The translations under genes were made by a program, and so were the position numbers. Positions 30,104-59,839 of a DNA stretch of 64,000 nt are shown one piece after another; the stretch's first letter is position 1, and every line of letters starts with the position of its first letter. Source of the stretch: Patescibacteria group bacterium (GTDB lineage Bacteria; Patescibacteriota; Gracilibacteria; Peribacterales; Peribacteraceae); the NCBI GenBank assembly GCA_018814875.1, contig JAHIYH010000031.1, forward strand, positions 12,739 to 76,738, in the 5' to 3' direction. The notes under the pieces are model-generated. The model did not search any database and was not told the DNA's origin. It worked only from the letters and a program-made list of their open reading frames with translations.

Positions 30104-31075
30104 ATGGAACCTAAGCGTGCACTTATTCTTGGAATTACAGGACAAGATGGAAGTTACCTTGCTGAGGTGCTTCTAGAAAAAGATTACGAAGTTCACGGAC
30201 TGATCAGAAGGTCTGCCACAGGCAACACCTGCAATATCGACCACTTTATAGATGACATAGAACTGCACAGAGGAGATCTATCGGATGCACCATCACTTTA
30301 CAGCGCAATCAACACAGTTCGTCCTGATGAGATCTATAACGAAGCAGATCAAGATCATGCTGGTTGGAGTTATAGCGTCGTTGATTATGCTTCGGATATC
30401 ACAGGCGCAGCTCCTGGTAGAATCTTGGAGATCATCAGACAGATTGATACCAAGATAAAATTCTTCCAGCCACTTACATCCAATATGTTTGGTCAGGCAG
30501 AGGAGTGCCCACAGAATGAAGAAACCAAACTTATGCCGCAGAGTCCTTACGCGTGTGCAAAGGCTTATGCTTTTATGCTCACACGTTATTACAGGCAGGT
30601 GCATAACATCTTTGCTTCTACTGCTATCTTCTTTAATCACGAATCTCCACGTCGCACTCCCTCGTATGTTTCGCGAAAGATTACACAGGCTGCAGTTAGA
30701 ATTTCACTTGGATTACAAGATAAACTTTATTTGGGTGATATAGAACCAGAGATAGATTTTGGATACGCAAAGGAATACATGGAGACGGCATGGAAAATAA
30801 TGCAACAAGACAAGCCCGATGACTTTGTAATTGGAACAGGCGAAGCACATTCAGTTAGAGAGCTTATGGAAGCAGCGTTTAAAGCAGTTGGTCTGAATGC
30901 AGATGATTATGTAGAGATTGATCCAAAACTCATCCGTCCAGGCAAAACAAGTACTCTAATTGCAGATTATTCCAAGGCAAATAAAGTATTTGGATACGAA
31001 CCAAAAGTTAAATATGAGGATTTGGTGAAGATCATGATTGAGCATGATAAACGAATTGAGACGAGGACGGTCTAA
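30104..31075 (+). CDS. Divergent GDP-mannose 4,6-dehydratase-like SDR
   Basis: [25 protein letters not shown], but atypical YNEADQDH and QPLTSN motifs. Confidence 0.8.
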   Translation: MEPKRALILGITGQDGSYLAEVLLEKDYEVHGLIRRSATGNTCNIDHFIDDIELHRGDLSDAPSLYSAINTVRPDEIYNEADQDHAGWSYSVVDYASDITGAAPGRILEIIRQIDTKIKFFQPLTSNMFGQAEECPQNEETKLMPQSPYACAKAYAFMLTRYYRQVHNIFASTAIFFNHESPRRTPSYVSRKITQAAVRISLGLQDKLYLGDIEPEIDFGYAKEYMETAWKIMQQDKPDDFVIGTGEAHSVRELMEAAFKAVGLNADDYVEIDPKLIRPGKTSTLIADYSKANKVFGYEPKVKYEDLVKIMIEHDKRIETRTV

Positions 31076-31172
31076 ACAATCAACAATCAACAGTCAACAC
31101 GCGCCTGCGGCGCTCTCAACAATCAACAATCAACAATCAACACGGGTGCTAAGCATCCTCTTAACAATCAAC
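31073..31172. repeat. Left arm of the four-helix-bundle cassette: 7-bp TCAACAA array with embedded GC hairpin
   Basis: taaacaatcaacaatcaacagtcaacacgc-gcctgcggc-gctctcaacaatcaacaatcaacaatcaacac; begins at the upstream TAA. Confidence 0.92.
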
Positions 31173-31209
31173 TTGTTTTGTATGAATGTATTTGGTAGAT
31201 TCGCGTGCT

Positions 31210-31575
31210 ATGTCGGCTTTTAGATTCAAACAGTTCAAAGTTTATAAAGACGCGAAAGAATTTCGAAGGCAAGTTTCGCGTCTTGTAATCAAGCTAACGG
31301 ATAAGCGAGCGTATGATCTTTCCGCTCAAATAAGAAGAGCAAGTCTTTCGATTGTTCTCAATATTGCGGAAGGATCAGCAAAGAAATCAGATATTGATTT
31401 TGCGAGGTTTTTAGAAATATCATCAGGATCTGTTAATGAAGTTGTTGCAGGATTTGATGTTGCACACGACGAAAATCTGATTTCCAGTGAAGATTTAAAT
31501 CTAATTGAAGATAAAGCAAGAGAAATTATAAATCAATTAGGAGGCTTTATAAAAAGCTTAAGAGTTAAAAGTTGA
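31210..31575 (+). CDS. Four helix bundle protein (23S rRNA IVP / Avd-like family)
   Basis: FKQFKVYKDA, LSAQIRRASLSIVLNIAEGS, FARFLEISSGSVNEV, LGGFIKSL are family hallmarks. Confidence 0.9.
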   Translation: MSAFRFKQFKVYKDAKEFRRQVSRLVIKLTDKRAYDLSAQIRRASLSIVLNIAEGSAKKSDIDFARFLEISSGSVNEVVAGFDVAHDENLISSEDLNLIEDKAREIINQLGGFIKSLRVKS

Positions 31576-31619
31576 TAGTTGATAGTTGATAGTTGATAGC
31601 GCAGCGTGTTGATTGTTAT
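31570..31619. repeat. Right arm of the four-helix-bundle cassette: 7-bp AGTTGAT array
   Basis: agttgatagttgatagttgatagttgatagcgcagcgtgttgattgttat; near reverse complement of the left arm and contains the stops of both adjacent genes. Confidence 0.92.
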
Positions 31620-32728
31620 ACCGCTACCGATTCAATAACATCACACACCCTCTCCATCTGCTCATCTGTAATAGCTAGCCCTGATGGAAGATATAGACCT
31701 CTTTCAGCAACGTATTCGGTCACAGGGAACGTTTCTTCTGTGGGATAAAGCTCACTGACCGCAGGTTGCTCGTGGCAGGGAACAAAGAATGTTCTGGTAT
31801 CAACTCCTTGCTCTTTAAGTTTGGCCGCAAACTCATCACGGCTCATGCCGAACTCATCTTCAATCAAGATTGCATACATCCAGTACACGTTTTTCGCGTA
31901 ATCTTTTGTAATGGGAGTGCGAATACCTTTGATACCTTGCAGTCTCTCTGTATAAAAATTCGCCATGTGCTCTTTTGTCTTCAAAAACTCTTCCAAGTGT
32001 TCCAGTTGCCCAAGGCCCAAGGCTGCTTGCAGATTGGTGACTCGATAGTTGTATCCGAGTTTTTCGTGGACGAATCGTTTTTGCTTTGAGTGCGACAAAT
32101 CTTTCAATGACCTGACACGTTCTGCGAGCTCATCATCATCTGTACACACCATTCCGCCTTCACCGGTTGAAATTATTTTGTTCCCGTAGAAACTAAAGGC
32201 ACTGATGTTCCCGAGTGATCCACACATTTTTCCTTTATAAGTTCCTCCATGAATTTCTGCAGCATCTTCTACTACAGAAATACCATGCTTTGCAGCAATT
32301 TCTAAAATTGGATCCATGTCGCAGCTATGTCCGTAAATGTGCACAGGCATTATTGCTTTTGTTTTTGGAGTTATTTTTTCTTCTAATTTGTTCGGATCCA
32401 TATTGTAAGTATCAGGTTCGACGTCGCAAAATACTGGTTTTGCTCCTGTGTACATAACAGCGAATACCGAGGCGATCATTGTAAAATCTGGCAGTATCAC
32501 TTCATCATCTGGGCCAACTTCAAGTGCCTCTAATGCCAAGTGGAGCGCGGTTGTTCCACTAGTAGTAAGTATCGCGTGTTTAACTCCAATTGTATTTGCA
32601 AAGGCTTCTTCAAACTTTCCTATGTAAGCACCTGCGGAAGAAATCCACCCCGTATCCAATGCATCATTTACGTACTTCTTTGCAGAAGCGGGGACAACGG
32701 GCTCGTTGACTGGTACAAAATCACTCAT
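31616..32728 (-). CDS. DegT/DnrJ aminotransferase, GDP-perosamine synthase-like
   Basis: GWISS.G, SGTTALHL, EDAAE, FSFYGNKIISTGEGG, GYNYRVTN. Confidence 0.88.
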   Translation of the reverse strand: MSDFVPVNEPVVPASAKKYVNDALDTGWISSAGAYIGKFEEAFANTIGVKHAILTTSGTTALHLALEALEVGPDDEVILPDFTMIASVFAVMYTGAKPVFCDVEPDTYNMDPNKLEEKITPKTKAIMPVHIYGHSCDMDPILEIAAKHGISVVEDAAEIHGGTYKGKMCGSLGNISAFSFYGNKIISTGEGGMVCTDDDELAERVRSLKDLSHSKQKRFVHEKLGYNYRVTNLQAALGLGQLEHLEEFLKTKEHMANFYTERLQGIKGIRTPITKDYAKNVYWMYAILIEDEFGMSRDEFAAKLKEQGVDTRTFFVPCHEQPAVSELYPTEETFPVTEYVAERGLYLPSGLAITDEQMERVCDVIESVAV

Positions 32729-32731
32729 TAC

Positions 32732-33139
32732 TTATGATTCAAGAAAGATTTTATCATTCTCTTGGTAGGGCCCTTGTTTTACTTCCATTATGCGTGATGG
32801 CTCAAGCATTTTTATAGAATGTCCTCCTTTTAAAAAGATTAAACATTGTCCTTCCTCAACAGTTTGTTCAGCCACTTTTTCCCATTCATCATTAAAAATT
32901 GTTACGAGCAGTTTTCCATTTTCAAGGATAATTAATTCTCCGATATTCTTAAGATCCAAATTGCGCGATTTATGCCTGTGAGGTTTTACTTCGTATTCCG
33001 CATCCCGCTCAAAAAATCCAACCTGCAAACTGTCGCAGTCTTCTGTTACGAATTTAACACCATTTTCTGTGTCCACATCTTGCTTAAAGATTAGGGCATA
33101 TATTTCTCCATTATGTTCTATGCGTTGGACAGCACTCAT
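32732..33139 (-). CDS. Cupin-fold protein of glycan loci
   Basis: PHRH, E, GGHS, EVKQGPY cupin motifs. Confidence 0.7.
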   Translation of the reverse strand: MSAVQRIEHNGEIYALIFKQDVDTENGVKFVTEDCDSLQVGFFERDAEYEVKPHRHKSRNLDLKNIGELIILENGKLLVTIFNDEWEKVAEQTVEEGQCLIFLKGGHSIKMLEPSRIMEVKQGPYQENDKIFLES

Positions 33140-33218
33140 GCTCCGAAGTATATGCAATTAGATATGCATTGCCATCTAATTTGAGACTATCTTCTAGATA
33201 GGATTGTTATCACCGCGT

Positions 33219-33617: not shown

Positions 33618-33641
33618 TTGCTTTAGCCTGACTTACACACG

Positions 33642-36724: not shown

Positions 36725-36747
36725 TTATGATAGAGTTCTTTAGACTT

Positions 36748-38193
36748 ATGGATAACTCTAAAACATCAGATGTACTCGTATTGGGGGCCGGTCCTGCTGG
36801 CATGGCGGCTGCGCTGGAGCTTTCTAGGAGAGGGAAGCGTGTTACAGTAATCGAGAAAGATTCTCAGGTAGGAGGATTGGCAAAGACATATATATTCTCC
36901 GAGCCAGAAGGAGTGTTTAGAACAGATAACGGGCCACATCGTTTCTTCAGCAAAAATAAGTATCTCTACGACATGATCGGAGATTTGCTTGGTGAAAAAT
37001 GGACTCAGGTCCCACGTCTTACGCGCTTCTTTGTTGGTGGAAAATTTTATTTCTATCCAGTTCGATTTAAAAATGTTCTAGGACAGATGGGTTTTATCAA
37101 AGCGTTTAGAGTTTTGTTTGATTATGTGATTGAACATATACGTGCACGTATTAAGCCTCGCAAAATGAATTCATTTGAAGATTTTGCTGTATCACGCTTT
37201 GGTCGCACGCTTGCAGAGTTTAATATGATCAATTACACCGAGAAGATCTGGGGAATTCCGGCGAGCGAGATCAATAAAGATTGGGCATCGCAACGTATTG
37301 CTGGATTAAGTTTGTTTTCTGCGATCAAGAAAATGATTTTTAAAAAAGGAGGACCTAAGTCGCTTGTTGATACGTTCTATTACCCAAGTCTTGGAGCCGG
37401 ACTCGTCTATGAGGGAATGAAGAAGAAAATTGAAGAGAATGGCGGTCAGGTTTTGCTCAATGCAGAGCCAATTTCTGTGAAGCACGAGAATGGTCGTGCA
37501 ACTCAGGTAGAAGTTAAAACTCAGCAAGGAACTAAGTTATTCTCTCCACAAGCAGTCATAAGTTCGATTCCTATCTCGCGCGAGATAGAGCTATTTGATC
37601 CTGTTGTTCCAAACGAAGTCCGTGATGCTGCGGGTAAACTGAGATTTCGTGCGCAGGTCTACCTCTTCCTCACGATTGATAAAGAAAAAGTAACAGATGA
37701 TAACTGGGTGTACTTTCCGGATAAGGAAGTTCCATTCGGACGAATTTCAGAAATGAAAAACTTTAGTAAAGAGATGAGTCCGTCGGATAAGACATCGCTC
37801 TTCGTTGAGTTTTTCTGTTTCGAAGGCGACGAGATCTGGAATGCGAACAAAGATCAGCTTTTTGATATGACAATGGAGTGGTTGGAGAAACTTAAGTTCC
37901 TAAAAAAAGAGGAAGTTTTGAATATTCATTACATCAAGAAGCCGAACGCTTATCCTCTCTACGATTTAGAATACAAAGAGCGCGTATCAACTGTTCTTAA
38001 TTGGATGGACTCGTTTGAAAACTTCTTTGCGATTGGTAGGCCAGGAAGATTCCGTTACACGAATCAGGATCACTCGCTCGAGATGGGAATACTAGCAGCG
38101 CGAAGTGTGTTGGAAGGGAAGCGGTACGAAGTTGATTCTGTAGGATCTGGCAAAGAGTACTTTGAGCAGGGGTATATACCAAATGAAAAATGA
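36748..38193 (+). CDS. FAD-dependent oxidoreductase of glycan loci (protoporphyrinogen oxidase / Glf-related)
   Basis: GAGPAG, IEK..VGG, DNGPHRFF, YTEKIWG, GRPGRFRYTNQDHS. Confidence 0.8.
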   Translation: MDNSKTSDVLVLGAGPAGMAAALELSRRGKRVTVIEKDSQVGGLAKTYIFSEPEGVFRTDNGPHRFFSKNKYLYDMIGDLLGEKWTQVPRLTRFFVGGKFYFYPVRFKNVLGQMGFIKAFRVLFDYVIEHIRARIKPRKMNSFEDFAVSRFGRTLAEFNMINYTEKIWGIPASEINKDWASQRIAGLSLFSAIKKMIFKKGGPKSLVDTFYYPSLGAGLVYEGMKKKIEENGGQVLLNAEPISVKHENGRATQVEVKTQQGTKLFSPQAVISSIPISREIELFDPVVPNEVRDAAGKLRFRAQVYLFLTIDKEKVTDDNWVYFPDKEVPFGRISEMKNFSKEMSPSDKTSLFVEFFCFEGDEIWNANKDQLFDMTMEWLEKLKFLKKEEVLNIHYIKKPNAYPLYDLEYKERVSTVLNWMDSFENFFAIGRPGRFRYTNQDHSLEMGILAARSVLEGKRYEVDSVGSGKEYFEQGYIPNEK

Positions 38194-38212
38194 ATAATGA
38201 AAAATGAATAAT
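38181..38212. repeat. Single-arm tandem array, 7-bp AATGAA(A/T), overlapping the upstream TGA stop
   Basis: aaatgaaaaatgaataatgaaaaatgaataat. Confidence 0.8.
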
Positions 38213-38709: not shown

Positions 38710-40353
38710 ATGCGTACTTCTTGGCGTTGGCCGATCATCCTTGGCGTGAGTTCGATTGTTATTGCTGTGTTTATGCAAGTGCCGCAATTCTTGCATCAAA
38801 TACATCCTGATTCTAAAGGCGTATTAGTTACATTGAATTCTGATGAGCATTACTACTTGGCGCGTGTGCAGGAAGCACTTTCAGGTCGTGGGGAACAGGC
38901 ATCTGAGGCATTTGTGGGAGATCCAGATATTGTGGGTACACAGCTTGCACTAATCGAGCGCTTGTATGGTGTACTTTTCTATTGGACAGGATTAAGAGCT
39001 TCTGGCGTGTTTCAAGTAATGGACAGCGTTCTGCCCGTTCTTATTTTCCTTGGGCTCTTTTTCTTCTTTCAACTCTGTGGATTTACACGCAAGCAGGCGT
39101 TATTTGGAGCGATACTTTTTGTTGTTATAGAAGCATATAACTTAAACAGACCGATTCACATGCGTGCGAGTTTCTTTGCAATGCTCATGACACTTATTTG
39201 TATTGCAGCTGGGATTACTCGTCGTCGATCGTTTGGTATTCTTGGCGGAGTTCTTTTGGGTGTACTCATTGGAGTTTATTTCTGGAGTTGGAGTTTTGCG
39301 TGGTTGTGGTGGGGGATTTATTTTGTGTGGGAATTGGGGGAGTTTGTTTGGCAACGTAGGGTGTTGGGCGTGGGGCGTGGGGCATTGGGAATATGGAAAA
39401 AGCTTCTGATTATTGGAGTGGTCGGGCTTGTTGCAGCACTTCCGTTCATATGGAATCTCTACTCGGTGATGCAGCATCCGCTCTCTGAGTACGGGGTTTT
39501 CCGCAGTGGAATGCATCCTTCGCGTATGCCTGAATCATGGATATACAGCGCATTGTTTGCAGTAATGACCGTAGGTGTACTCATGACGGTTAGAAAAAGA
39601 TATGAACAGTTACGTCCGTACCGCGCTGGAATTGTGACAGTTTTGACGGCATTTGGGTTCATGAATCAGCAGGTTATTCATGGGACAATATTTATGTTTG
39701 TGTCTCATTCCATATTCTCTCTCCTTCTTGCTCCGATAGTGGTGTTACTACTTGCATGGACACTCAGAACTAAGTGGATGATCATTGCAGCCTTAGCAGC
39801 TTGTATATATCTCGCAGGAATAGGATATGACGGAAGGTACGTGCTAGGTCAGTGGACTGTGATACCTGGGCGATTCGCAGATCAGCACTTTGCCACATTG
39901 TTGCCAGTTTTGGATGAGCTCCCGCGCGTACGTATTTTGTCTGACCCCGATAGTACAGCGTTCATTGCGAGTTATACTCATCATGATGTTGTGTATTCCA
40001 TTTATCTAAAGAACGTTCTAATGACTCATAAGGAGATTGCAGAGCGCTTCTGTACTTTGCAGATTCCCACAAATCCCGATGATTGTGACTTTGAAAACAT
40101 AGATCACCTAATTCATCCGGAAGCAAATGCAGTGTTTGGTGATCCAAGTATTAGGGAGAATGAACTTAAATTAATTAATGAAGCGTGTGCAGAAGCCGAT
40201 CGTGATCCGGCAGCATTTCTCAAAAAATTCGATGTGCAGTATGTATTGTGGGATGAAAAGAGGCAGCCAGATTGGGATTTGAGGCGATTTCGTGTTCCTT
40301 TAGAAAAAGTGGTACAAGGAGAAGGGTGGTCGTTGTGGGGGATCGACAGTTAA
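38710..40353 (+). CDS. Polytopic membrane protein, possible GT-C fold glycosyltransferase
   Basis: DE motif after the first TM (NSDEHYY), many TMs, soluble C-terminal domain (VQYVLWD). Confidence 0.55.
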   Translation: MRTSWRWPIILGVSSIVIAVFMQVPQFLHQIHPDSKGVLVTLNSDEHYYLARVQEALSGRGEQASEAFVGDPDIVGTQLALIERLYGVLFYWTGLRASGVFQVMDSVLPVLIFLGLFFFFQLCGFTRKQALFGAILFVVIEAYNLNRPIHMRASFFAMLMTLICIAAGITRRRSFGILGGVLLGVLIGVYFWSWSFAWLWWGIYFVWELGEFVWQRRVLGVGRGALGIWKKLLIIGVVGLVAALPFIWNLYSVMQHPLSEYGVFRSGMHPSRMPESWIYSALFAVMTVGVLMTVRKRYEQLRPYRAGIVTVLTAFGFMNQQVIHGTIFMFVSHSIFSLLLAPIVVLLLAWTLRTKWMIIAALAACIYLAGIGYDGRYVLGQWTVIPGRFADQHFATLLPVLDELPRVRILSDPDSTAFIASYTHHDVVYSIYLKNVLMTHKEIAERFCTLQIPTNPDDCDFENIDHLIHPEANAVFGDPSIRENELKLINEACAEADRDPAAFLKKFDVQYVLWDEKRQPDWDLRRFRVPLEKVVQGEGWSLWGIDS

Positions 40354-40370
40354 CAGTTAACAATTAACAA
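40346..40370. repeat. Tandem array, 7-bp TTAACA(G/A), supplying the upstream TAA
   Basis: acagttaacagttaacaattaacaa. Confidence 0.8.
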
Positions 40371-40383: not shown

Positions 40384-41289
40384 CTAATTGCTATTGTACC
40401 ATTCAACAGTCTTCTTAATTCCCTCATCAAATGGCGTCAGTGGCTCGTAACCAAGCAGCTTCTTCGCCTTAGAGATATCTGCGATGTACTGAATTACTTC
40501 ACCAGGACGATTGTCTTGGATGTCTATTTCGGAATCGCTTCCATGAAGCTCTTTCAGGACTTCTGCGAGACGAACAATAGTAGTTGCATCCCCAAATGCC
40601 AGATTGATTGTCTCGTTCTTTGCATCATCAAATTTTTCTACTGCAAGTATCAGGCCATTTACTGTGTCGTCGATATATGTAAAGTCGAGACACTTATCTT
40701 TGCCAAATATAGTCATTGTCTCATTCGCTTTTGCTTGTCTGATAAAGAGGGGGATTACGCGATCAGAATCGTCATACATTCCGTAGACATTAGAGAGCCG
40801 GAACACGATTCCATCAATTCCATAACAACGCCAGTAGGCTTTCATTAGTGCCTCGCCTCCAATCTTGCTAGCTGTATATGCACTCTCGCAGTTATCTACA
40901 CGCATCATGTCTTCGGTATGTGGGTCATTTGTATCATTACCATATGTTTCTCTTGATGATGTGAAGATGAAACGTTTGATATTATTCTTCCGTGCAAATT
41001 CAAGAGTGTTGTAGGTAGAAATGAAATTATCTCGAGCCATATCCGGTTCTTTTACAAGTTCATAAACACGCGCGTTGGCAGCCAAATGTATGATTATATC
41101 TATGTCTTTGGGCAGTTTGTCGAGTTGAGATTCGTCTCTCAGGTCAACAATTGTCGTTATTTGGTCGATATTACTCTGCCACTTATTTGGCTTCCAATCT
41201 GCACCAATAACCTCGTAGCCCTTTTCTATGAGCTTTTCGCATAAGCGTGTGCCAATCGTTCCAGAGGAACCAGTAACGAGGATTTTCAT
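40384..41289 (-). CDS. NAD-dependent epimerase/dehydratase
   Basis: TGSSGTIG, HLAANA, YTASK, NVYG, DFTYIDD. Confidence 0.9.
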   Translation of the reverse strand: MKILVTGSSGTIGTRLCEKLIEKGYEVIGADWKPNKWQSNIDQITTIVDLRDESQLDKLPKDIDIIIHLAANARVYELVKEPDMARDNFISTYNTLEFARKNNIKRFIFTSSRETYGNDTNDPHTEDMMRVDNCESAYTASKIGGEALMKAYWRCYGIDGIVFRLSNVYGMYDDSDRVIPLFIRQAKANETMTIFGKDKCLDFTYIDDTVNGLILAVEKFDDAKNETINLAFGDATTIVRLAEVLKELHGSDSEIDIQDNRPGEVIQYIADISKAKKLLGYEPLTPFDEGIKKTVEWYNSN

Positions 41290-41611: not shown

Positions 41612-43498
<1,887 letters not shown>

Positions 43499-43510
<12 letters not shown>

Positions 43511-45156: not shown

Positions 45157-45187
45157 CATTTCTGATATTAGGTTTATGATTTTCACA

Positions 45188-46279
45188 ATGATTTCTCTTA
45201 TATTACCAACGTACAACGAAGCAGAGAACATTCCTGAGCTTCTTCCTAAGATTGAGGAGATCTTATCGGGCATTCCGCACGAAATTATCATTGTGGATGA
45301 TGATTCTCCTGATAAAACGTGGCAGGTGGCGTTGGATCTTTCTCAGAATAAAGAAGATGTGCACGTTATTCGTAGAGTTGATAAACGAGGGCTTTCCTCT
45401 GCAGTCATTGATGGGTTCCTTGCAGCTAAGGGAGATGTATTTGCAGTAATGGATGCGGATGGGCAGCACGATATGGAATTACTTCCAAAGTTGTACGTAG
45501 CAGTTAAGGAAAACAATGGCCTCGCAATTGGATCAAGATATATTGAAGGCGGAAGCGTAGGCGGTTGGGATGAACGAAGACACTTTTTGAGCAAGATTGC
45601 GACAAAGATGGCATTGCATATTTGCAGTGTAAAAGTAAAAGATCCGATGAGTGGATTTTTTGCACTTGATCGCAAAGTATTTGAAGAAGTTTTACCAAGA
45701 TTAAATCCAAAGGGATTCAAAATCCTTCTCGACTTACTCGTGCATGTCCCCAAAGAAACCAAAGCTACGGAAACACCTTACACATTCGGTGTTCGTCAAT
45801 TAGGAAAGAGCAAACTCTCTTGGAAAGTGCAGATAGAATTTTTGGAATATCTTTACGATGTGACTGTAGGAAGATTCATTCCGCTGACATTCGTAAAGTT
45901 CTGCATTGTTGGAACATTTGGAGTTTTTGTTCACTTGATAGCGTACGGTGTTATCTCTCGTTCCATCATGGATGGGGATCCACTGACGATCGGAGGGTTC
46001 TCATTTGCAGTAATTGGAGCCACAGAAATTGCAATTATCTTCAATTATCTGCTGAATAACTCCTGGACATTTGCACATCAAAAGTTACGAGGAACATCAG
46101 CAATAGTTGGTTTCTTCAAATACAACGTTGCATGCTCGTTTGGGGCACTGGCAAATTGGGCGGTTAGTGCTTATCTCTTCTCGATTGGGTGGATTGATTT
46201 TCTGGCGGTCTTCACAGGAGCAATTGTTGGAGTTATGTGGAACTACACGATGAATAGGATGTTTACTTGGCGAAAGTAG
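45188..46279 (+). CDS. GT2 (Dol-P-Man synthase-like) fused to a C-terminal GtrA domain
   Basis: PTYNEAEN, VDDDSPDKT, MDADGQH, DPMSGFF; then KFCIVG...NYLLNNSWTF...WNY...FTW. Confidence 0.9.
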   Translation: MISLILPTYNEAENIPELLPKIEEILSGIPHEIIIVDDDSPDKTWQVALDLSQNKEDVHVIRRVDKRGLSSAVIDGFLAAKGDVFAVMDADGQHDMELLPKLYVAVKENNGLAIGSRYIEGGSVGGWDERRHFLSKIATKMALHICSVKVKDPMSGFFALDRKVFEEVLPRLNPKGFKILLDLLVHVPKETKATETPYTFGVRQLGKSKLSWKVQIEFLEYLYDVTVGRFIPLTFVKFCIVGTFGVFVHLIAYGVISRSIMDGDPLTIGGFSFAVIGATEIAIIFNYLLNNSWTFAHQKLRGTSAIVGFFKYNVACSFGALANWAVSAYLFSIGWIDFLAVFTGAIVGVMWNYTMNRMFTWRK

Positions 46280-46358
46280 TATTTCGTATTTCGTATCTCG
46301 TATTTCGTATCTAGCATGGCCTTTAGACCGAAATACTAAATACTAGATACTAAATACG
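46279..46358. repeat. Inverted tandem array, 7-bp GTATTTC / GAAATAC, between convergent genes
   Basis: gtatttcgtatttcgtatctcgtatttcgtatctag ... gaaatactaaatactagatactaaatacg; touches both stop codons. Confidence 0.93.
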
Positions 46359-47297
46359 ATAGTACTCGCGGTACCATTCCACAAACTTAGGCACTCCATC
46401 CTTAATTTGTGTCTTAGGTTCGTATCCAAGATCTCTCTTTGCCTTGGAGACATCCGCAAGACTTGCTCGCACATCTCCTTTCTGCATTGGCATAAAGTTC
46501 TTCTGAGCCTCTTTTCCACATGCTTCTTCGATTGTTGTGATGAAGTCCATGAGCTCTTCTTGTCTTCCAGAGCCTAAGTTGTATGCCTCCTCCTCAGCAT
46601 TGTTATCGATTGCTCCGATTGTGCCTGCAACAATATCTTCAACAAAAGTGAAGTCGCGTTGCATTTTTCCTTCGCCGAATACGTTAATGGGTTTGTCGTT
46701 CAGAATTGCATCTGTAAATAGGAAGAGTGCCATGTCTGGGCGCCCCCATGGTCCGTAAACCGTGAAGAATCGAAGTCCTGTAACAGGAATTCCATACAGG
46801 TGATGGTATGTATGGGCCATTAGTTCATTGTTTTTCTTGGTCATGCCGTAGAGTGCCAGCTGACTATCTGTTCGATCATCTTCGCTTGATGGTAGCTTCT
46901 TGTTATCACCATAAATAGAACTTGAAGAAGCGTAGATAAAACCGGGGATTTCTTGCATGCGTGCCTCATCTATCATCTCGAATGTTCCTTGGATATTATT
47001 CAGAATAAATTCATCTGGATGCTCAAACGAGTAGCGCACTCCGGCGAGTGCAGCTAAGTGGCACACACGATCTACTCCTTTCATAGCTCCACGTACTGTC
47101 TTGCGGTCTGTAATATCTCCACGTACGAGTGTGAATCCTTTTACTCCTTCCAACTGTTTGATTCTGTCCTCTTTAAGCTGAGGATCGTAGTAGGGATTGA
47201 AGTTATCTATTCCGATTACTTCATCACCACGTGCGAGTAGAACTTTCGCCGTATGGAAGCCAATGAACCCTGCCGCTCCTGTTAGTAGAATCTTCAT
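46350..47297 (-). CDS. UDP-glucuronate 4-epimerase-like NAD-dependent epimerase
   Basis: TGAAGFIG, HLAALAGVRYS, YGMTKK, LRFFTVYGPWGRPDMA. Confidence 0.92.
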   Translation of the reverse strand: MKILLTGAAGFIGFHTAKVLLARGDEVIGIDNFNPYYDPQLKEDRIKQLEGVKGFTLVRGDITDRKTVRGAMKGVDRVCHLAALAGVRYSFEHPDEFILNNIQGTFEMIDEARMQEIPGFIYASSSSIYGDNKKLPSSEDDRTDSQLALYGMTKKNNELMAHTYHHLYGIPVTGLRFFTVYGPWGRPDMALFLFTDAILNDKPINVFGEGKMQRDFTFVEDIVAGTIGAIDNNAEEEAYNLGSGRQEELMDFITTIEEACGKEAQKNFMPMQKGDVRASLADVSKAKRDLGYEPKTQIKDGVPKFVEWYREYYRI

Positions 47298-47390
47298 TAG
47301 TTTCTAGTTTATTAGTTTTTAGTTTTTAGTTACACCGTTTTTGCTCCTTTTTAGTAAACTAGGAACCAGAAACTAGCTAACCAGAAACTG
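47298..47390. repeat. Inverted tandem array, 7-bp TAGTTT(T/C) / AAACTAG
   Basis: tagtttctagtttattagtttttagtttttagtt ... aaactaggaaccagaaactagctaaccagaaactg; fills the intergenic gap. Confidence 0.85.
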
Positions 47391-48698
47391 TCAAAGTCCT
47401 ATCCCATGGTACTGCAGTCCAGCTTCGCGGACTTCGTCTGGTTCATAAATATTTCTTCCATCAAAGATGTCGTTTCCCTTCATTGTTTCTTTAAGTTTGT
47501 TTAGATCTATTCCGCGGAACTCATCCCATTCTGTAAGAACTATAACGGCATCAGCTTCATCAGCCGCCGCAAATGGATTTTTAGTGAATTCAATTTCTTT
47601 AGGAAGCAGAGGCTTGGCTGTCTCGATTGCAGCTGGATCAAACGCACGTACAGTATGTCCGGCACTAACAAGATCTGGAATTAGATCCAAGCTCGGAGCT
47701 TCGCGCATATCATCTGTCTTAGGTTTAAAACTAAGTCCCAACACTCCAATAGTAGCATTGGGTGGCAGAGCATCTAGAATCTTCTTAAAGAACCGTTTTC
47801 GTTGTCGTGTATTAATCTTGTCTGTTGCTTCTACAATTTCCATTGGAATATCCAGTTCCTTTGCCGTAGCCAGAAGAGCCTTAACATCTTTTGGGAAACA
47901 ACTTCCTCCATATCCAATGCCTGCGTGTAAAAATCTTGGACCAATGCGATCATCCAGACCTACGCCTTTTGCGACATCACGAATATTAGCGCCGGTCTTC
48001 TCGGTCAATTCAGTAAGCATGTTGATGAAGCTGATCTTGGTTGCCAGAAGCGCGTTACTTGCATACTTCACAATTTCAGAGCTCTCTCGACTCATGAAGA
48101 CCAATGGTTTGCCGACTCTTGTTATTGGGCGATAGAGCTCTTCCATCAGTTCGCGTGCCCATTCATTGTGATTCACACCAACTATTACACGGTCTGGCAT
48201 TAGCGTGTCATTTACTGCCATGCCCTCACGAAGAAATTCAGGATTAGATACAACAGGGATTGATAGATTTTCTTCGCGTTCATGAAGGATTGTTGCAATA
48301 CGTTCCTCGCACTGCTTTCCGGTTCCAACTGGTACAGTAGATTTGTTTACAAACACCAAGTCGTGATCTGCATGCTTCGCAACCGTTTCTGCAACTGTGA
48401 AAACTGCTCGTAAGTCAGCTTTGTGCCCCTCGCCGGGGGGAGTGGCAACTGCTGAGAAAACGATCTGACATTCAGGTAGTACTTCATTCAAGTCAGTTGT
48501 AAAAGAAAGTCGGCCATTCTTGAGTCCTTCTCTTAGTAGCTCTTCTAATCCAGGTTCATAGATCGGGCTTTCCCCCTTCTTTATCTTCGCGATTTTCTTC
48601 TCATCAATATCTATGCCGTATACCTCGTGCCCCAGCTCTGCGAAGCAGGCAGCGGAGACTAATCCTACGTAACCGGTACCTATTACTGCGATTTTCAT
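47391..48698 (-). CDS. ugd: UDP-glucose 6-dehydrogenase
   Basis: IGTGYVGL, KSTVPVGT, SNPEFLREG, GYGGSCFPKD, FKPKTDDMREAP, DGRN. Confidence 0.95.
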   Translation of the reverse strand: MKIAVIGTGYVGLVSAACFAELGHEVYGIDIDEKKIAKIKKGESPIYEPGLEELLREGLKNGRLSFTTDLNEVLPECQIVFSAVATPPGEGHKADLRAVFTVAETVAKHADHDLVFVNKSTVPVGTGKQCEERIATILHEREENLSIPVVSNPEFLREGMAVNDTLMPDRVIVGVNHNEWARELMEELYRPITRVGKPLVFMSRESSEIVKYASNALLATKISFINMLTELTEKTGANIRDVAKGVGLDDRIGPRFLHAGIGYGGSCFPKDVKALLATAKELDIPMEIVEATDKINTRQRKRFFKKILDALPPNATIGVLGLSFKPKTDDMREAPSLDLIPDLVSAGHTVRAFDPAAIETAKPLLPKEIEFTKNPFAAADEADAVIVLTEWDEFRGIDLNKLKETMKGNDIFDGRNIYEPDEVREAGLQYHGIGL

Positions 48699-48701
48699 AA
48701 A

Positions 48702-48793
48702 AAATTGATAATGGAAAATTGATAATTGACAATTATGTTATGGAACATAAGCGTCTTACCAATTGTCCATTGTCCATTGTTAATTATCAATTA
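48702..48793. repeat. Inverted tandem array, 7-bp AATTGA(T/C) / (A/G)TCAATT
   Basis: aattgataatggaaaattgataattgacaatt ... aattgtccattgtccattgttaattatcaatt. Confidence 0.88.
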
Positions 48794-48836: not shown

Positions 48837-49787
48837 ATGAAAAAAAAGATCTTAATAACCGGTTCTGTCGCATACGACGTCATGCTCGGATATGATGGGT
48901 CCTTTGCGAAAGCTATAAACCCAGAGACAATCGACAGCTTGTCCCTTTCCTTCTTCTCGCCGCACTACGCACGGCATCATGGAGGAACTGGAGCGAATAT
49001 TGCATGGAGTTTGAAGTTACTTGGTGAAGATCCACTACTCGTCAGTTCGGTTGGAAGTGATGGCCGAGAGTACACAGCAGTTTTGGAGAAGCAGGGAATT
49101 GATACAGGTCACATAGAAATTTTGGAAGATCACGTTACCGCAACCGCGATTGTTGGAACGGATAGTGATGAACGACAGATCGCATTTTTTCATCCGGGTG
49201 CAGATTCACATGGAACTTGGCCGGATCTATCCCAAGATCGTGATGACTTGGCGTATGCCATAGTCAGCCCACGTGATACAACTGCAATGGTGAGTGGGAT
49301 GGAATGGTGCAAGAAGTTTGGAGTTCCAGTTATATTCGATCCTGGTCAGCAGATCATTTCTTTTGGAGAAGATGCGTTAGAGCGGATGGTTCGTATGGGA
49401 TCTGCACTTATTGCAAACGAATACGAATGGGATTTGGTGCAGAAGAAATTATCGTGTGATGGTAAAAGTATTCTGGAACTTGTTCCTCTAGTGATTGTTA
49501 CACTGGGCGATCAAGGCTTTATAGTGATTGACGAGAATGGAGCTAAGAAAATGAATGCATGTACTCCTCTTCAGGTGGTCAATCCAACAGGGGCAGGGGA
49601 TGCATTCCGTGCAGGACTTCTAAAAGGATTCGCCGCAGGATGGAATGTAATGGATTCGTGCAAATTGGGTGCGGCTTTGGGGTCACTTGCTGTGGAGAAT
49701 GAAGGGACACTCCTTTCTTCTATTGATAGTGATGAAGTAAAACTGAGAATTAAACAGGCGTATGGGGTAGATATACCTTTGGTGTAA
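48837..49787 (+). CDS. PfkB family kinase (adenosine kinase-like)
   Basis: GSVAYD, GGTGANIA, FDPGQ, NEYE, NPTGAGDAFRAG; adjacent to ahcY. Confidence 0.85.
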   Translation: MKKKILITGSVAYDVMLGYDGSFAKAINPETIDSLSLSFFSPHYARHHGGTGANIAWSLKLLGEDPLLVSSVGSDGREYTAVLEKQGIDTGHIEILEDHVTATAIVGTDSDERQIAFFHPGADSHGTWPDLSQDRDDLAYAIVSPRDTTAMVSGMEWCKKFGVPVIFDPGQQIISFGEDALERMVRMGSALIANEYEWDLVQKKLSCDGKSILELVPLVIVTLGDQGFIVIDENGAKKMNACTPLQVVNPTGAGDAFRAGLLKGFAAGWNVMDSCKLGAALGSLAVENEGTLLSSIDSDEVKLRIKQAYGVDIPLV

Positions 49788-49815
49788 GTTCCAAGGTCCA
49801 AGTTCCAAGTGCCAA
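49786..49815. repeat. Single-arm tandem array, 7-bp AAGTTCC, starting in the upstream TAA
   Basis: aagttccaaggtccaagttccaagtgccaa. Confidence 0.8.
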
Positions 49816-51359: not shown

Positions 51360-51360
51360 T

Positions 51361-51475
51361 CAACAGTTGACCAGCCTTCGCTAAAGCTACGGCCGGCAGG
51401 CAGTTAACATTTAACAATTAACAGTTAAAAATTAATAACCGCAACCGTAACCGCAACAGCGACGCCGCGTCGCTG
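51361..51475. repeat. Composite repeat: TTAACAG array interrupted by a REP-like element, then an AACCGC array and a GC hairpin
   Basis: caacagttga-ccagccttcgctaaagctacggccggcagg-cagttaacatttaacaattaacagttaa; aaccgcaaccgtaaccgcaac; cagcgacg-ccg-cgtcgctg. Confidence 0.85.
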
Positions 51476-53058: not shown

Positions 53059-54009
53059 ATGGAGAACAATAAAGCTATTGCAGGTCTACTCTGTCAAATC
53101 GCCGCCCTACTCCAAGAGCAGGAGGTGCCCTTTAAGCCTGCGGCATACAGGCGGGCTGCTCAGGTAATAGAAGAACTACCTCGAGATATTTCAACTTATG
53201 GAGATGAGAAGGAACTCAAGAAACTCTCAGGTATTGGTGATGCAATTGCACGTAAAATTATTGAGTACTTAGAAACAGGAAAAATAACTGCACTGGAAAA
53301 TTTACGCATCACTCAAGGTGGAATTCCCGCAGATCTTATGGACGTAGAAGGACTCGGGCCTAAGCGTGTACGTCAGATTCAAGCTGCATTTGGAGTGAAG
53401 ACTGTTGCAGATCTTATAAAAGCTGCAGAGGATGGGAAGCTGAGAACTCTCCCTCGTTTTTCTGAATTGATGGAGAAGAAAGTTTTGGAGAATGCGAAGC
53501 GGGTTAAGGAACGTACAAGGCGATTTCCGCGTGAGGAGGTTAAAGAAGATGTTATCAAGCTTCTGAAGAAGATTGAGGGCGTGGAAGGTGTTGATCAGTG
53601 CAGTGTTGCAGGTTCATATCGTCGCGAAAAAGAAACAGTTGGGGATATAGATATTCTCGTTGTAACTAAGTCACCAAAAGAAGTTTCCGATGCTATCGCT
53701 AGCTTATCTATAGTTCGTGATGTGGTGGCACATGGAGAGCGCAAACTTTCGTTTGATCTAAAGTCAGGATTACGCGTTGATGTTCGGTTTGTCAAAAAAG
53801 ATCAGTGGGGATCGGCACTCCTATATTTCACTGGATCAAAAGAGCACAATATTGCAATGCGTAGAGTAGCAATCAAGAACAGCTGGAAGCTTAATGAATA
53901 CGGACTTTTTGATGGAGATGCTTTGCTTGCGAGTAAGACCGAAGAGGAGATATATAAAAAGCTAAAACTGAGGTTTTTTGCTCCAAAAGAAAGGGGAGGA
54001 AGGTTATAA
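53059..54009 (+). CDS. polX: DNA polymerase X family, lacking the PHP domain
   Basis: AYRRAA, HhH GIG and GLGPK, GSYRR, GDIDIL, RVDVR, YFTGSKEHN, LNEYG. Confidence 0.92.
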   Translation: MENNKAIAGLLCQIAALLQEQEVPFKPAAYRRAAQVIEELPRDISTYGDEKELKKLSGIGDAIARKIIEYLETGKITALENLRITQGGIPADLMDVEGLGPKRVRQIQAAFGVKTVADLIKAAEDGKLRTLPRFSELMEKKVLENAKRVKERTRRFPREEVKEDVIKLLKKIEGVEGVDQCSVAGSYRREKETVGDIDILVVTKSPKEVSDAIASLSIVRDVVAHGERKLSFDLKSGLRVDVRFVKKDQWGSALLYFTGSKEHNIAMRRVAIKNSWKLNEYGLFDGDALLASKTEEEIYKKLKLRFFAPKERGGRL

Positions 54010-54010
54010 G

Positions 54011-54052
54011 AAAGTTAAAAGTGAAAAGTTAAAAGTGAATAGTGAATAGTGA
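54011..54052. repeat. Single-arm tandem array, 7-bp AAAGTGA drifting to TAGTGAA
   Basis: aaagttaaaagtgaaaagttaaaagtgaatagtgaatagtga. Confidence 0.85.
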
Positions 54053-54083
54053 TTAGAATAATGTGCTAGCTTATAGTCTGACT

Positions 54084-55037
54084 ATGCTCACTCAACTCGC
54101 TGATTTTCTAACGTTCACAATACTTAAGATTGAGCCAGAAACGACTCAGGCTGCGGTGGTGCATTTCTTTTTGTATGACTCCATCAAGATTCTTCTTCTG
54201 TTGATAGTCATCACGCATTTTATGAGTTTGCTGCGGTACTACTTGCCCATAGAAAAGATGCGGGCATTCCTAACTTCGCATAAGTTCTATGGAGCGGATT
54301 ATTTTCTGGCAACGATATTTGGGGCTGTTACTCCTTTCTGTTCTTGTTCATCTATTCCACTTTTTATTGGCTTTGTAGAGGCGGGGATTCCGCTTGGAGT
54401 CACATTGTCTTTCCTTATCACTTCTCCATTGATCAACGAAGTGGCTGTTGCTCTATTTATAAGCATGTTTGGATGGAAAGTCACACTTCTTTACGTTGGT
54501 GCGGGGATTGCTGTAGGAATGATTGGCGGAATGATATTGAGTAGAATGCGATTGGAACAATATATAGAAGAGTTTGTGCAAAAGTCTCCTTGTAAGTGCA
54601 AACAAAAATCAGAAAAGTCTTCGGTAGTAAGTATTTGTTTGATGCTATCTAAAGATGCAATGGGGATTGTTAAACAGGTGGCTCCGTTTGTTCTTATAGG
54701 CGTAATGGTTGGAGCTCTTATTCACGGATACGTTCCGGAAGGATTCTTTGAGCAATATATTCAAAAAGATAATCTATTTGCAGTTCCTGCAGCTGTTATT
54801 TTGGCTGTACCACTTTATGCCAATGCGAGTGGTGTGATTCCTATTATCGAATCTCTTGTAGATAAGGGGATTCCACTGGGAACTGCGCTAGCTTTTATGA
54901 TGGCAGTTGTTGGTCTTTCGCTCCCGGAAGCATTGATCTTAAAGAAAGTGATGAAGCTAAAACTGCTCCTAGCATTCTTTGGAGTAGTGACTTTGGGGAT
55001 TATGCTGATTGGGTATGGCTTCAACATAATGCTTTAA
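54084..55037 (+). CDS. Permease, ArsP/DUF318 family
   Basis: TPFCSCSSIP, FLITSP, GIPLGTALAFM, LSLPE. Confidence 0.88.
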   Translation: MLTQLADFLTFTILKIEPETTQAAVVHFFLYDSIKILLLLIVITHFMSLLRYYLPIEKMRAFLTSHKFYGADYFLATIFGAVTPFCSCSSIPLFIGFVEAGIPLGVTLSFLITSPLINEVAVALFISMFGWKVTLLYVGAGIAVGMIGGMILSRMRLEQYIEEFVQKSPCKCKQKSEKSSVVSICLMLSKDAMGIVKQVAPFVLIGVMVGALIHGYVPEGFFEQYIQKDNLFAVPAAVILAVPLYANASGVIPIIESLVDKGIPLGTALAFMMAVVGLSLPEALILKKVMKLKLLLAFFGVVTLGIMLIGYGFNIML

Positions 55038-55062
55038 ACTGGTTTGCCATGAGCGAGTCGGA

Positions 55063-55152
55063 TGGCGGAGAGAGGGGGATTCGAACCCCCGAGACCCTTT
55101 CAGGTCTACTCGCTTTCCAAGCGAGCGCACTAGGCCACTATGCGATCCCTCC
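55063..55152 (-). tRNA. tRNA-Ser (GGA)
   Basis: GGAGGGA acceptor stem, anticodon arm CTCGC-TTGGAAA-GCGAG, long variable arm, GGTTCGAATCC, encoded CCA. Confidence 0.97.
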
Positions 55153-55557: not shown

Positions 55558-55628
55558 AATAGAGAAGGGGAAAGGCATAGGTTGTCTTAAAGCGTACTCG
55601 TTCCTTTATATTTGCACAATATGCCATA

Positions 55629-55712: not shown

Positions 55713-55735
55713 CTCTTCGTGTATGCTTATCCCAT

Positions 55736-58138: not shown

Positions 58139-58250
58139 TGACACGTTCGCCTACGGCGAACTTTCAACACGCTTCGCTTTCAACAATCAACTTCAAAGTT
58201 GATGGTTGAAAGCGACCCCACTTTACCGGGGAGCGTGTTGATTGTTATCA
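58136..58250. repeat. Gene-less copy of the four-helix-bundle cassette arms
   Basis: tcaacacgc-ttc-gctttcaacaatcaac ... gttgatggttgaaagcg...agcgtgttgattgttat; the 17-mer 58232-58248 is identical to 31603-31619. Confidence 0.88.
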
Positions 58251-58276
58251 CGTTCATGATAAAATACAAAATCTTC

Positions 58277-58813
58277 ATGTCTATAACTACCAAGATTGGC
58301 GATGGTGGTAAATCAGGGCTCCTAAGTGGGGAGCGTGTTTCTAAGGGTTCTCTTCGCTTGGAAGCATTTGGGACTGTGGATGAACTTAATGCAGTTTTGG
58401 GAGTTGTTCTTGTCGAGGAAGAGATTCCCGTAGAAGTCAAAGAGTACTTAGTGCAAGTGCAGAAGCTTCTTTTTAGAGTTGGGACGGATTTGGCGACTCC
58501 ATTAAAAGGGACAAGTGGAATCGTCAGAATTTCTCAGGAAGATATCTATCAAATTGAAAAGTGGATTGATGAACTTGAGCAGACGCTTCCTGTTCTCAAA
58601 CACTTCATTCTTCCAAGTGGATCGCGACTGAGTTCGTTGATACATCAGGCTCGCACAGTATGTCGTCGTGCGGAGCGATGCACTGTTCGATTATCTGAAA
58701 AAGAAAAGATAAATGATCACGTTCAAATTTATCTGAATCGTTTAAGCGACTACCTCTTTCTAGCCGCACGAGAGGCAAATCTTGGAGAGGGAGTTGATGA
58801 GTCGGAGGTGTGA
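58277..58813 (+). CDS. Cob(I)alamin adenosyltransferase, PduO type
   Basis: TTKIGDGG.S, GTVDELNA, FILP, RTVCRRAER, YLNRLSDYLF. Confidence 0.93.
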   Translation: MSITTKIGDGGKSGLLSGERVSKGSLRLEAFGTVDELNAVLGVVLVEEEIPVEVKEYLVQVQKLLFRVGTDLATPLKGTSGIVRISQEDIYQIEKWIDELEQTLPVLKHFILPSGSRLSSLIHQARTVCRRAERCTVRLSEKEKINDHVQIYLNRLSDYLFLAAREANLGEGVDESEV

Positions 58814-58850
58814 CGTTATTTCGTTATTTCGTTAATTCGTTTATTTGTTA
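58813..58850. repeat. Tandem array, 8-bp TTCGTTAT, starting at the TGA stop
   Basis: acgttatttcgttatttcgttaattcgtttatttgtt. Confidence 0.88.
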
Positions 58851-59838: not shown

Positions 59839-59839
59839 A

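Follow-up and report, generated by a model that had tools for sequence, protein, structure and literature searches.

Tandem repeats that begin exactly where genes end raise two questions, namely how they came to lie there and what they do to the encoded proteins. We met this situation in a 64,000-nt stretch of DNA (the window; positions 12,739 to 76,738 of the forward strand of contig JAHIYH010000031.1, assembly GCA_018814875.1). Between positions 31073 and 58850 of this window, a sequence-only reading had noticed that repeat arrays begin on, and often supply, the stop codons of neighbouring genes. It had proposed that either insertion or synthesis targets gene 3' ends, or only arrays that restore a stop survive selection, with protein C-termini being rewritten either way. 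In the analysis reported here, array edges piled up at stop codons throughout the genome, whole array-bearing blocks were present or absent between relatives, arrays coded for protein tails past the conserved core, and the arrays were linked to cassettes that carry a gene for an S23p (23S rRNA intervening-sequence) protein. The best reading of these observations, and on balance a probable one, is that blocks are gained at gene junctions and then pass through a survival filter; slippage and a role of the RNA hairpins are compatible with it.

The contig to which the window belongs is 175 kb long and comes from the genome of an uncultured bacterium of the Peribacteria (candidate phyla radiation (CPR), Patescibacteria), here called G000, which comprises 1.42 Mb in 70 contigs and is 98.8% complete. 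Its STRR-like repeats at first hinted at a cyanobacterium; this origin was rejected in view of the genome's size and completeness and because, among named genomes, PheT has its nearest relatives in assemblies of Candidatus Peribacteria / Peribacteraceae. Its 1161 genes were called from open reading frames (ORFs) with a codon-usage score, and tandem repeats were called over the whole genome with Tandem Repeats Finder (TRF). These gene calls are heuristic, and starts were set at the longest ORF, which if anything shifts starts toward arrays. Genome-wide, TRF returned 621 rows of period 7, 225 of period 8, and 332 of period 9, while periods 2 to 5 were scarce (1, 12, 7, and 7 rows, respectively); nearly all of the 66 rows in the window had period 7 or 8 or multiples of these. 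Arrays make up 2.8% of the genome, and period-7 rows are mostly intergenic (464 of 621), though the non-coding share is only 19.4% by these gene calls. With tandem units of 7-9 nt, the arrays belong to the bacterial heptamer-repeat kind (short tandemly repeated repetitive sequences, STRR, or long simple sequence repeats, LSSR), with which they share head-to-tail units of ~7 nt at many loci, a preference for intergenic DNA, and a stop-codon bias. Instead of one dominant unit such as GGGAATC or TAACTGA, however, the 470 period-7 arrays comprise 100 canonical heptamer units, the commonest of which (AATGAAA type) occurs at 44 loci. Unit composition is 67% A+T, and among 16 loci read by eye the loops look unrelated despite a shared unit.

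Counting offsets from the last base of the stop codon, with negative values for overlap, we found the stop-codon association confirmed genome-wide. The histogram of array edges has a peak at -3 to +3 of stops, with 13-23 edges per nt compared to ~5 per nt on either side, and an edge falls within this interval at 126 of 460 stop ends versus 35 of 444 start ends. The same asymmetry exists within single gaps: in 264 co-directional gaps the array was closer to the stop in 176 cases and closer to the start in 86, with 2 ties (p = 2.8e-8). Convergent gaps provide the cleanest control because there is no start-side constraint in them. In the 66 convergent gaps with at least 20 nt of residual spacer, 34 ends had an array at a distance (d) of at most 3 nt, whereas sliding the array block uniformly within the gap gave an expectation of 7.0 ± 2.3 and a maximum of 15 in 2000 trials. 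For divergent gaps (n = 85), the same sliding-block test gave 12 ends versus 7.6 ± 2.5.

We considered whether chance or an annotation artefact could generate this peak, since the AT-rich units are stop-like, gaps are short, and TRF edges are fuzzy. A naive null in which arrays are clipped to the gap does put 12% of stop ends at d = 0-2, as many gaps are nearly filled; clipping inflates the expectation near zero, and this null was superseded by the asymmetry and sliding-block tests. Stop density in the arrays abutting a stop (d = 0 to 3) is the same in sense (0.063) and antisense (0.064) and similar to that of arrays elsewhere; stop-triplet content therefore fails to explain the peak. Randomly placed edges, given gap length and stop-triplet content, were what the sequence-only reading had named as the outcome that would speak against it. 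Such placement is contradicted by this equality, by the excess of ends in convergent gaps, by the stop/start asymmetry within the same gaps, and by a peak that stands 3-4 times above the level on both sides. The histogram, gap asymmetry, stop-density, and sliding-block results have thus already refuted this explanation, to which we assign next to no probability.

Stop content was different in arrays that intrude into genes. In arrays reaching at least 4 nt into an ORF, stop density was 0.118 in sense versus 0.068 in antisense, and stops were present in all three frames in 61% (sense) versus 27% (antisense); this enrichment was limited to intruding arrays. It supports a survival filter, in which only tolerable or stop-supplying intruding arrays persist, and thereby the second of the two routes that had been proposed. 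The first route, dedicated targeting or synthesis at 3' ends, was not demonstrated. Array coverage of spacer DNA is 14.6% in convergent, 12.1% in co-directional, and 10.8% in divergent gaps; arrays are not confined to 3' ends and have no 3'-region specificity.

The consequences for proteins were assessed by gathering the orthologue ends of 24 window genes in up to 11 relatives. All 11 relatives, with 4-60 kb of syntenic DNA, contain arrays (3.5-12.7 per 10 kb), and the trait is found across the Peribacteraceae genera sampled. One gene end often bears an array in several species, with differing units. For example, the glycosyltransferase gene 45176-46279 is followed by units TATTTCG, TAATTGA, and TTGACAA among species, with its tail ...TWRK-stop unchanged. 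The epimerase encoded by 46350-47297 ends in ...EWYR.YY followed by RI, GI, GLIDN, GLIEN, GRN, KC, K, and others, and in the orthologues with arrays these tails are spelled by the species' own unit. At 15 ends in 12 genomes an array reaches at least 4 nt into the ORF. The residues coded by the array lie wholly past the last conserved alignment column in 12 of these, and in the other 3 the first array-overlapped codon is the last conserved column.

The closest relative, G003 (rebuilt at 1.05 Mb, 82% complete), shares 651 orthologue pairs with G000 at a median identity of 82%. C-terminal length was equal in 256 of 436 pairs without arrays, in 89 of 128 pairs where an array only touches the stop, which is more often than without arrays, and in 40 of 87 pairs with an intruding array (p = 0.033 versus no arrays). 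C-termini thus vary considerably even without arrays. The rewriting of C-termini is real but modest: it concerns 1-7 non-conserved terminal residues.

The strongest evidence for insertion at 3' ends comes from the junction of hrcA and the next gene, which we compared in 13 Peribacteraceae genomes. This junction is tight (4-20 nt) in 8 of them, four of the same genus and four from four other genera (5 genera), and the four same-genus genomes have the HrcA tail ...RSYS-stop. In the other 5 genomes the junction is widened by an insert with an array, and the repeat unit takes the place of the final 1-3 codons and the stop. For G000 and G004 this insert (420 and 435 nt) is an S23p gene (PF05635, E about 3e-32) flanked by GGGCTAG arms, the left of which begins right after the Tyr codon. 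The resulting tails are ...RSYQG-stop and ...RSYDKG-stop, with the TAG located within the first units of the array; the right arm of the G000 insert reaches exactly to the ATG of the following gene. At the same place a GGAATCC hairpin occurs in G001 and G006 (126 and 170 nt), and G010 has an array flush with the stop. Overall, the tail changes from ...RSYS-stop to ...RSYQG-stop, ...RSYDKG-stop, or ...RSY-stop. The tight junction is the parsimonious ancestral state, and on this basis array-bearing blocks have arrived more than once in a target only a few bases long, displacing the stop codon that was there. At this one polarised junction, the comparison shows block gain exactly at a stop, in a pattern that fits an aimed insertion as well as the survival of such landings.

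Other junctions point in the same direction. Thirty-five junctions measure at most 25 nt in G003 and at least 60 nt in G000, and 29 of the 35 contain arrays, which suggests block gain at stops. At the gap of hairpin 47296-47389, a homologous hairpin is present in G005, and the genes overlap without a gap in G003. Expansion in the reverse direction, in G003 relative to G000, was found 7 times, a count to be read with the 82% completeness of G003 in mind; part of the size difference between the two genomes may be due to array-bearing inserts.

Sequence replacement as such carries less information. Four-fold synonymous sites are only 47% identical between G000 and G003, so that neutral DNA is near saturation and array replacement alone says little; the idea of an unusually fast array turnover was dropped for this reason. 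Pooled over 247 syntenic gaps, identity was 0.395 at array positions versus 0.432 in other spacer, and the gap identities form two groups: among 170 gaps, 42 are less than 20% identical, whereas 22 reach at least 80%. No indels in arrays were found among the assembled contigs of two DNA runs, which are a possible source of the assembly and are uninformative on population variation. With respect to phase variation, in which changes of copy number would switch a reading frame or promoter within a population, the arrays are located at 3' ends and not in 5' coding parts.

What are the blocks made of? Many arrays form the two arms of a hairpin, and a stem of this kind, made of inverted tandem units, also encloses S23p genes; in addition there are a few hundred empty hairpins and single arrays. 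PF05635 is the S23p / Avd-like four-helix-bundle family, S23p being a relative of Avd, the accessory protein of diversity-generating retroelements (DGRs). The 1.42-Mb genome has 21 PF05635 matches over the cut-off (loci on contigs C12, C20, C23, C29, C36, C37, C39, C41, C43, C44, C53, C59, C60, and C62). An inverted match of at least 12/14 between the 160 nt upstream and the downstream flank was present for 17 of these 21 genes versus 13 of 150 other small genes. Each cassette bears its own arm unit. The 3' arm usually starts on, or a few codons from, the S23p stop and often codes the S23p tail, as in ...PQPQP-stop from CCCCAGC units. The window copy and the other copies inspected are located between protein ORFs and not in a 23S rRNA helix. 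Nine of the 21 cassettes have syntenic flanks in G003, and 5 of these correspond to gene-free sites of -4, 62, 126, 198, and 324 nt, two of which hold a different, empty hairpin. In four cassettes (C29:41151, C29:15172, C36:48203, and C53:23556), a 22-nt hairpin word CGTTC-N12-GAACG separates the 5' arm from the S23p gene. This word recurs at ~25 other places with variable loops, three times as CGTTCTTAAGGGGGGTGGAACG, and the broader motif CGTTC-N(6-20)-GAACG has 55 strand-specific matches at ~30 places genome-wide, mostly outside cassettes.

The mechanism that we favour would work as follows. Blocks, be they an array, a hairpin, or an S23p cassette, would be gained, replaced, and lost as units at gene junctions, and a block would persist only where nothing breaks. 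It would be tolerated up to the stop and a few codons past it, while ~20-50 nt would be kept clear on the start side. With a tolerant stop side and a cleared start side, array edges would stack on stop codons. With a period that three does not divide, translation terminates within some three units if the unit has a sense-strand stop triplet. Even a block that eliminates the original stop could therefore survive, leaving a lineage-specific tail of 1-7 residues and an array-supplied stop. We infer that gain occurs by insertion of pre-formed blocks rather than by local growth, and that the final position is set by selection rather than by an integrase-like specificity.

A purely local origin would dispense with block insertion altogether: words of 7-9 nt would slip in the absence of mismatch repair, expand, and reach the stop through deletion of spacer. 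Several observations fit this. No match to MutS (PF00488) or MutL (PF01119) was found in the 98.8%-complete genome, the order and number of units in a conserved array differ between G000 and G003, and arrays at stops have more copies (4.8-4.9) than distant arrays (4.0-4.35; p = 1.7e-7) at equal purity. Slippage was also the explanation given for heptamer excess by Mrazek 2007, as reported in the passages of MacGregor 2015 (PMC4679880) on the subject. The missing MutS and MutL fit with repeat instability, but repeats of 1-5 nt are nearly absent, which speaks against slippage as the only cause, since general slippage would not be expected to yield 621 period-7 rows next to so few of periods 2-5. 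Furthermore, an inverted partner of the identical unit accompanies half of the arrays, a single unit can be found at as many as 44 loci, whole hairpins and S23p cassettes appear where junctions of 4-20 nt offer no local seed, and convergent gaps keep their far-side spacer while the array is flush with one stop. We therefore regard an origin by slippage alone as improbable. Gradual spacer loss also predicts more degenerate arrays at stops; this age test was uninformative, with purity at 84.4% at stops and ~85.5% in distant arrays (p = 0.30).

Two side observations may be added here. Gene 53059-54009 of the window encodes a family-X (Pol beta-like) DNA polymerase with helix-hairpin-helix (HhH), palm, and thumb domains, in this genome without a MutS or MutL match. 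The unit TTGACAA/TTGATAA occurs at many gene ends in G001, G004, G005, G007, and G010 (loci L093-L111), and by arithmetic (3 x 7 + 2) mixed arrays of it spell TTGACA-N17-GATAAT, which would read as a near-consensus sigma-70 promoter.

At the other extreme, the heptamer-armed hairpins, with or without S23p, might be a mobile family with an integration route of its own, which homes to ORF 3' boundaries, inserts into junctions of only a few bases, and swaps the resident stop for its own, with S23p as part of the machinery. If so, this would be a new class of stop-codon-seeking elements editing protein C-termini across many bacterial phyla. The replaced stops at hrcA fit with homing, and the genome-wide spread of arrays over divergent and convergent gaps does not call for it; we consider homing possible yet doubtful. 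The genome has 2 matches to the Y1 transposase family (Y1_Tnp), and a single sequence-specific transposase of the repetitive extragenic palindrome (REP) type is unlikely, as it does not fit more than 100 families of arm units.

Several findings weigh against block gain with a survival filter. No insertion machinery or target-site signature was found, and for about half of the arrays no inverted partner was detected. Polarity is established at the hrcA junction only, and the cassette shared there by G000 and G004 might instead reflect inheritance with repeated loss, or transfer by recombination. Sharing of array-at-stop status between G000 and G003 is above chance: both genomes have an array at 62 stops, one genome only at 96 and 57, and neither at 436 (odds ratio 4.9), and the odds ratio is still 3.1 when both gaps measure at least 40 nt (p = 9e-5). 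At 26 of 53 shared sites a match of 13-14/14 has been kept, versus 2 of 53 mismatched controls, so that some arrays look maintained rather than transient. Finally, the differences in unit order between G000 and G003 in the conserved array 54011-54052 mean that local slippage also acts.

Such conservation would be expected if the arrays were selected 3'-end RNA elements, for example RNase III sites, barriers to 3' exonucleases, or terminators placed at the stop by selection. An inverted partner (at least 12/14, within 130 nt) was detected for 49% of 1144 arrays compared to 2.5% of 400 controls, and of 12 window gaps that were folded, 8 gave long stems (z -4.35 to -7.3). Besides these strong predicted stems, the RNA explanation can draw on the positional conservation between G000 and G003 (odds ratio 3.1-3.4 after gap-length control), on near-identical sequence at the 26 shared sites despite saturated synonymous sites, and on an RNase III gene in the genome. 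In 11 conserved hairpins, arms were 86% and loops 59% identical, a biased comparison in that gaps were picked for an arm identity of at least 0.7. RNase III is furthermore described to cut the heptamer-bearing stem of the Coxiella intervening sequence (IVS) in the relevant passages of Warrier 2016 (PMC4990558). Against this explanation, divergent gaps are covered nearly as densely as convergent ones, identity to G003 at array positions is no higher than in other intergenic DNA in the pooled comparison, and 4 of the 12 folded gaps are single arrays without a stem. Inverted pairs also lacked a clear preference for placing the A-rich arm 5' and the U-rich arm 3' (A-rich first arm in 152, the opposite in 114, 20 neutral). 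A general role as selected RNA elements thus appears unlikely to us as the origin of the pattern. Classical intrinsic terminators in particular were rejected, given the lack of a U-tract orientation bias, the 67% A+T units, and the about equal population of divergent gaps. Processing by RNase III, as in the Coxiella IVS, may nevertheless be regarded as the best lead for a role of the hairpins.

Within the window, gene products were ordinary by Pfam search: sugar-nucleotide epimerases and dehydratases, glycosyltransferases, UDP-glucose dehydrogenase, S-adenosylhomocysteine (AdoHcy) hydrolase, the family-X polymerase, PheT, and cobalamin adenosyltransferase. Of 22 gene 3' ends between 31073 and 58850, 11 have an array edge at -13 to +1, one is a weak case, and 10 do not. 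Six of these 10 are without a called array, and four have offsets of 10, 14, or 44 or an uncalled hairpin-like stretch; several array-free ends are tight or overlapping junctions with no space for an array. Of the 12 stops that the sequence-only reading had listed, 11 have an edge on the stop or 0-1 nt after it, the one at 31616 being weak. The last codons that it had called repeat-derived (PNEK-stop, AERS-stop, IDS-stop, and YRI-stop) were quoted correctly to within a codon, and the two arrays said to start 1-2 bp after the stops at 26959 and 54009 both start 1 nt later.

The first of these two is a hairpin of 8-nt units AAAGTCGA / GACATTTC at 26961..27030 (no strand), which begins 1 nt past the TAA (26957-26959) of plus-strand gene 25838-26959 and has a predicted RNA fold of -28.4 kcal/mol (z -6.0). 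The window's S23p cassette follows at 31075. Two direct AACAATC/TCAACAA arrays with a small GC hairpin between them (31075..31142, +) make up its 5' arm, and the array 31075-31099 overlaps by 1 nt the stop 31073-31075, the TAA of gene 30008-31075. The S23p gene itself (31186..31575, +; PF05635, E 2.7e-27) is located between the inverted arrays and between two sugar-nucleotide enzyme genes. Its upstream and downstream flanks have a 13/14 inverted match, and no orthologue of it was found in the syntenic segments of 11 relatives. An AGTTGAT array plus remnant (31570..31618, +), inverted relative to 31075-31142, forms the 3' arm. In this arm, the array 31570-31599 contains the S23p stop TGA (31573-31575), and a 12-nt TGTTGATTGTTA remnant covers the stop 31616-31618 of minus-strand gene 31616-32728; this remnant was not called by TRF, hence the weak case.

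Two plus-strand arrays further downstream reach into genes. An AATGAAA array at 38181..38212 encodes N-E-K and the TGA (38191-38193) of gene 36727-38193, whose orthologue tails diverge past a conserved GY(I/V)P; it has no inverted partner and no hairpin (z -0.5). An ACAGTTA array at 40346..40369 contains the TAA (40351-40353) of gene 38710-40353, covers D/S-stop, and ends 14 nt short of the stop of convergent gene 40384-41289. A long hairpin of AAAGTCGA / CGACTTTT units at 43378..43510 (no strand) has a predicted fold of -51.2 kcal/mol (z -7.3). Its right arm, array 43447-43510, spans the stop 43499-43501 and the last three codons (E-R-S) of minus-strand gene 43499-44800, 12 nt in all. On its left, minus-strand gene 42323-43444 would include an AAAGTCGA array (43378-43444) in its coding region if it began at the longest-ORF start, GTG 43444; since its Pfam domain starts at residue 45, a start further downstream is probable, which would leave the array intergenic.

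A GTATTTC / AAATACT hairpin at 46279..46357 (no strand; z -4.4) fills a convergent gap, with a left arm that begins at the last base of TAG 46277-46279 and a right-arm array (46331-46357) that holds the stop 46350-46352 and the last two codons (R/I) of minus-strand gene 46350-47297; relatives have other units or no array in this gap. The TTAGTTT / AAACTAG hairpin at 47296..47389 (no strand; z -4.7) constitutes the entire 93-nt gap from the stop of 47391-48698 (-) to the start of 46350-47297 (-), and with stop 47391-47393 and a period-15 TRF row ending at 47389 it adds a site to the earlier list. A hairpin of AATTGAT / ATTGTCC units at 48701..48780 (no strand; z -6.1) is located in a divergent, start-to-start gap, from which it follows that the elements are not restricted to 3' ends; in G003 the same conserved flanks enclose another hairpin, built of TAGCTTG units.

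The remaining sites are arrays. The AAGTTCC array at 49786..49815 (+) has a 2-nt overlap with TAA 49785-49787 and no inverted partner. An AAAGTGA/AAAGTTA array at 54011..54052 (+) starts 1 nt after TAA 54007-54009 and ends 10 nt before the start at 54063; its gap aligns to G003 at 91% identity, compared to the 47% of four-fold sites. The CGTTATTT array at 58814..58850 (+) directly follows TGA 58811-58813, so that the array noticed at this stop is indeed there and abuts the codon rather than overlapping it. Further on, arrays of the TTAATTCG / AAATAACA type at 59733..59839 (no strand) end directly at the stop 59840-59842 of minus-strand gene 59840-60166 and fold weakly (z -1.5). Small GC-rich hairpins or words were seen in or beside arrays at 31100-31115, 51360-51403, and 58139-58198 (CGCGCCTGCGGCGC; CCTTCGCTAAAGCTACGG; CGTTCGCCTACGGCGAAC); these look like tiny dispersed inserts, and CCTTCGCTAAAGCTACGG recurs after pheT in relative G002. 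At ~55060-55135 on the minus strand, beyond gene 54063-55037, the sequence reads like a putative tRNA gene 3' end with a GGTTCGAATCC-type T arm.

For annotation of CPR genomes, these results mean that repeats are the source of many stop codons and of lineage-specific C-terminal tails 1-7 residues long. Heptamer repeats and S23p intervening sequences, both old unexplained features of scattered bacterial lineages, co-occur in this small CPR genome in a form open to comparison with close relatives, which makes a countable system for asking about mobility, site choice, and a role of such elements in RNA processing. Our literature search found no published description of these arrays in Peribacteria, Patescibacteria, or CPR bacteria.

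How do the arrays relate to known systems? Cyanobacterial STRR heptamers, reportedly described by Mazel and colleagues in 1990, are said to form several heptamer families in intergenic DNA, and we know of no stop-codon statistics or C-terminal effects from that work; their hosts belong to a different phylum and have genomes 4-6 times larger than G000. Small dispersed repeats, a subject ascribed to Elhai and colleagues in 2008, are said to be tiny GC-rich hairpins inserted into arrays, to which the hairpin at 31100-31115 may be compared. REP elements, REP-derived hairpins (REPINs), and their REP-associated tyrosine transposases (RAYTs), as Bertels and Rainey reportedly described in 2011, comprise hundreds of dispersed extragenic hairpins, often just after genes. 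REPs have one conserved palindrome per RAYT, whereas the G000 arms are tandem arrays of many unrelated units.

The nearest precedent for the stop-codon bias is the heptamer repeats of Xanthomonas (GGGAATC) and Nostoc (GGGGAYT), which according to the passages concerned in Rehm 2015 (PMC4692102) lie preferentially within 50 bp of, or overlapping, a stop codon, with 70-75 convergent inverted pairs per Xanthomonas genome. As in G000, these are tandem 7-nt units, mostly intergenic and stop-biased, and the basic observation alone is therefore not new. The passages describe one dominant G-rich, quadruplex-forming unit for each organism, whereas G000 has 100 period-7 units, and they mention neither changes of C-termini documented by orthologues, nor block indels, nor a link to S23p (Rehm 2015, PMC4692102). 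New here are the quantification of the pile-up against controls, the stop enrichment only in intruding arrays, the orthologue evidence for array-coded tails, and a polarised junction whose stop was replaced by S23p cassettes and hairpins. In marine Beggiatoaceae, TAACTGA repeats overlap with 13 stop codons, which the passages in MacGregor 2015 (PMC4679880) explain by three-frame stops. Like arrays of G000, these are heptamers with stops in all three frames in forward orientation, but they are described there as a single unit, mostly in direct repeats just upstream of starts, and as proposed sites of a translational regulator (PMC4679880); G000 has a stop bias, and half of its arrays form inverted pairs.

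The closest structural parallel to the S23p cassettes is the IVS of Coxiella burnetii. As described in passages of Warrier 2016 (PMC4990558), it has an S23p ORF, a 28-bp stem of terminal inverted repeats, cleavage by RNase III, and tandem GACAGAT heptamers at its 5' side with a strain-variable copy number, and its authors call the element selfish. Both systems have a PF05635 ORF enclosed by terminal inverted repeats with tandem heptamers. The Coxiella element is inside helix 45 of 23S rRNA (PMC4990558), whereas the 21 copies of G000 lie between protein genes, each with its own arm unit and with arms that abut or replace the stops of their neighbours.

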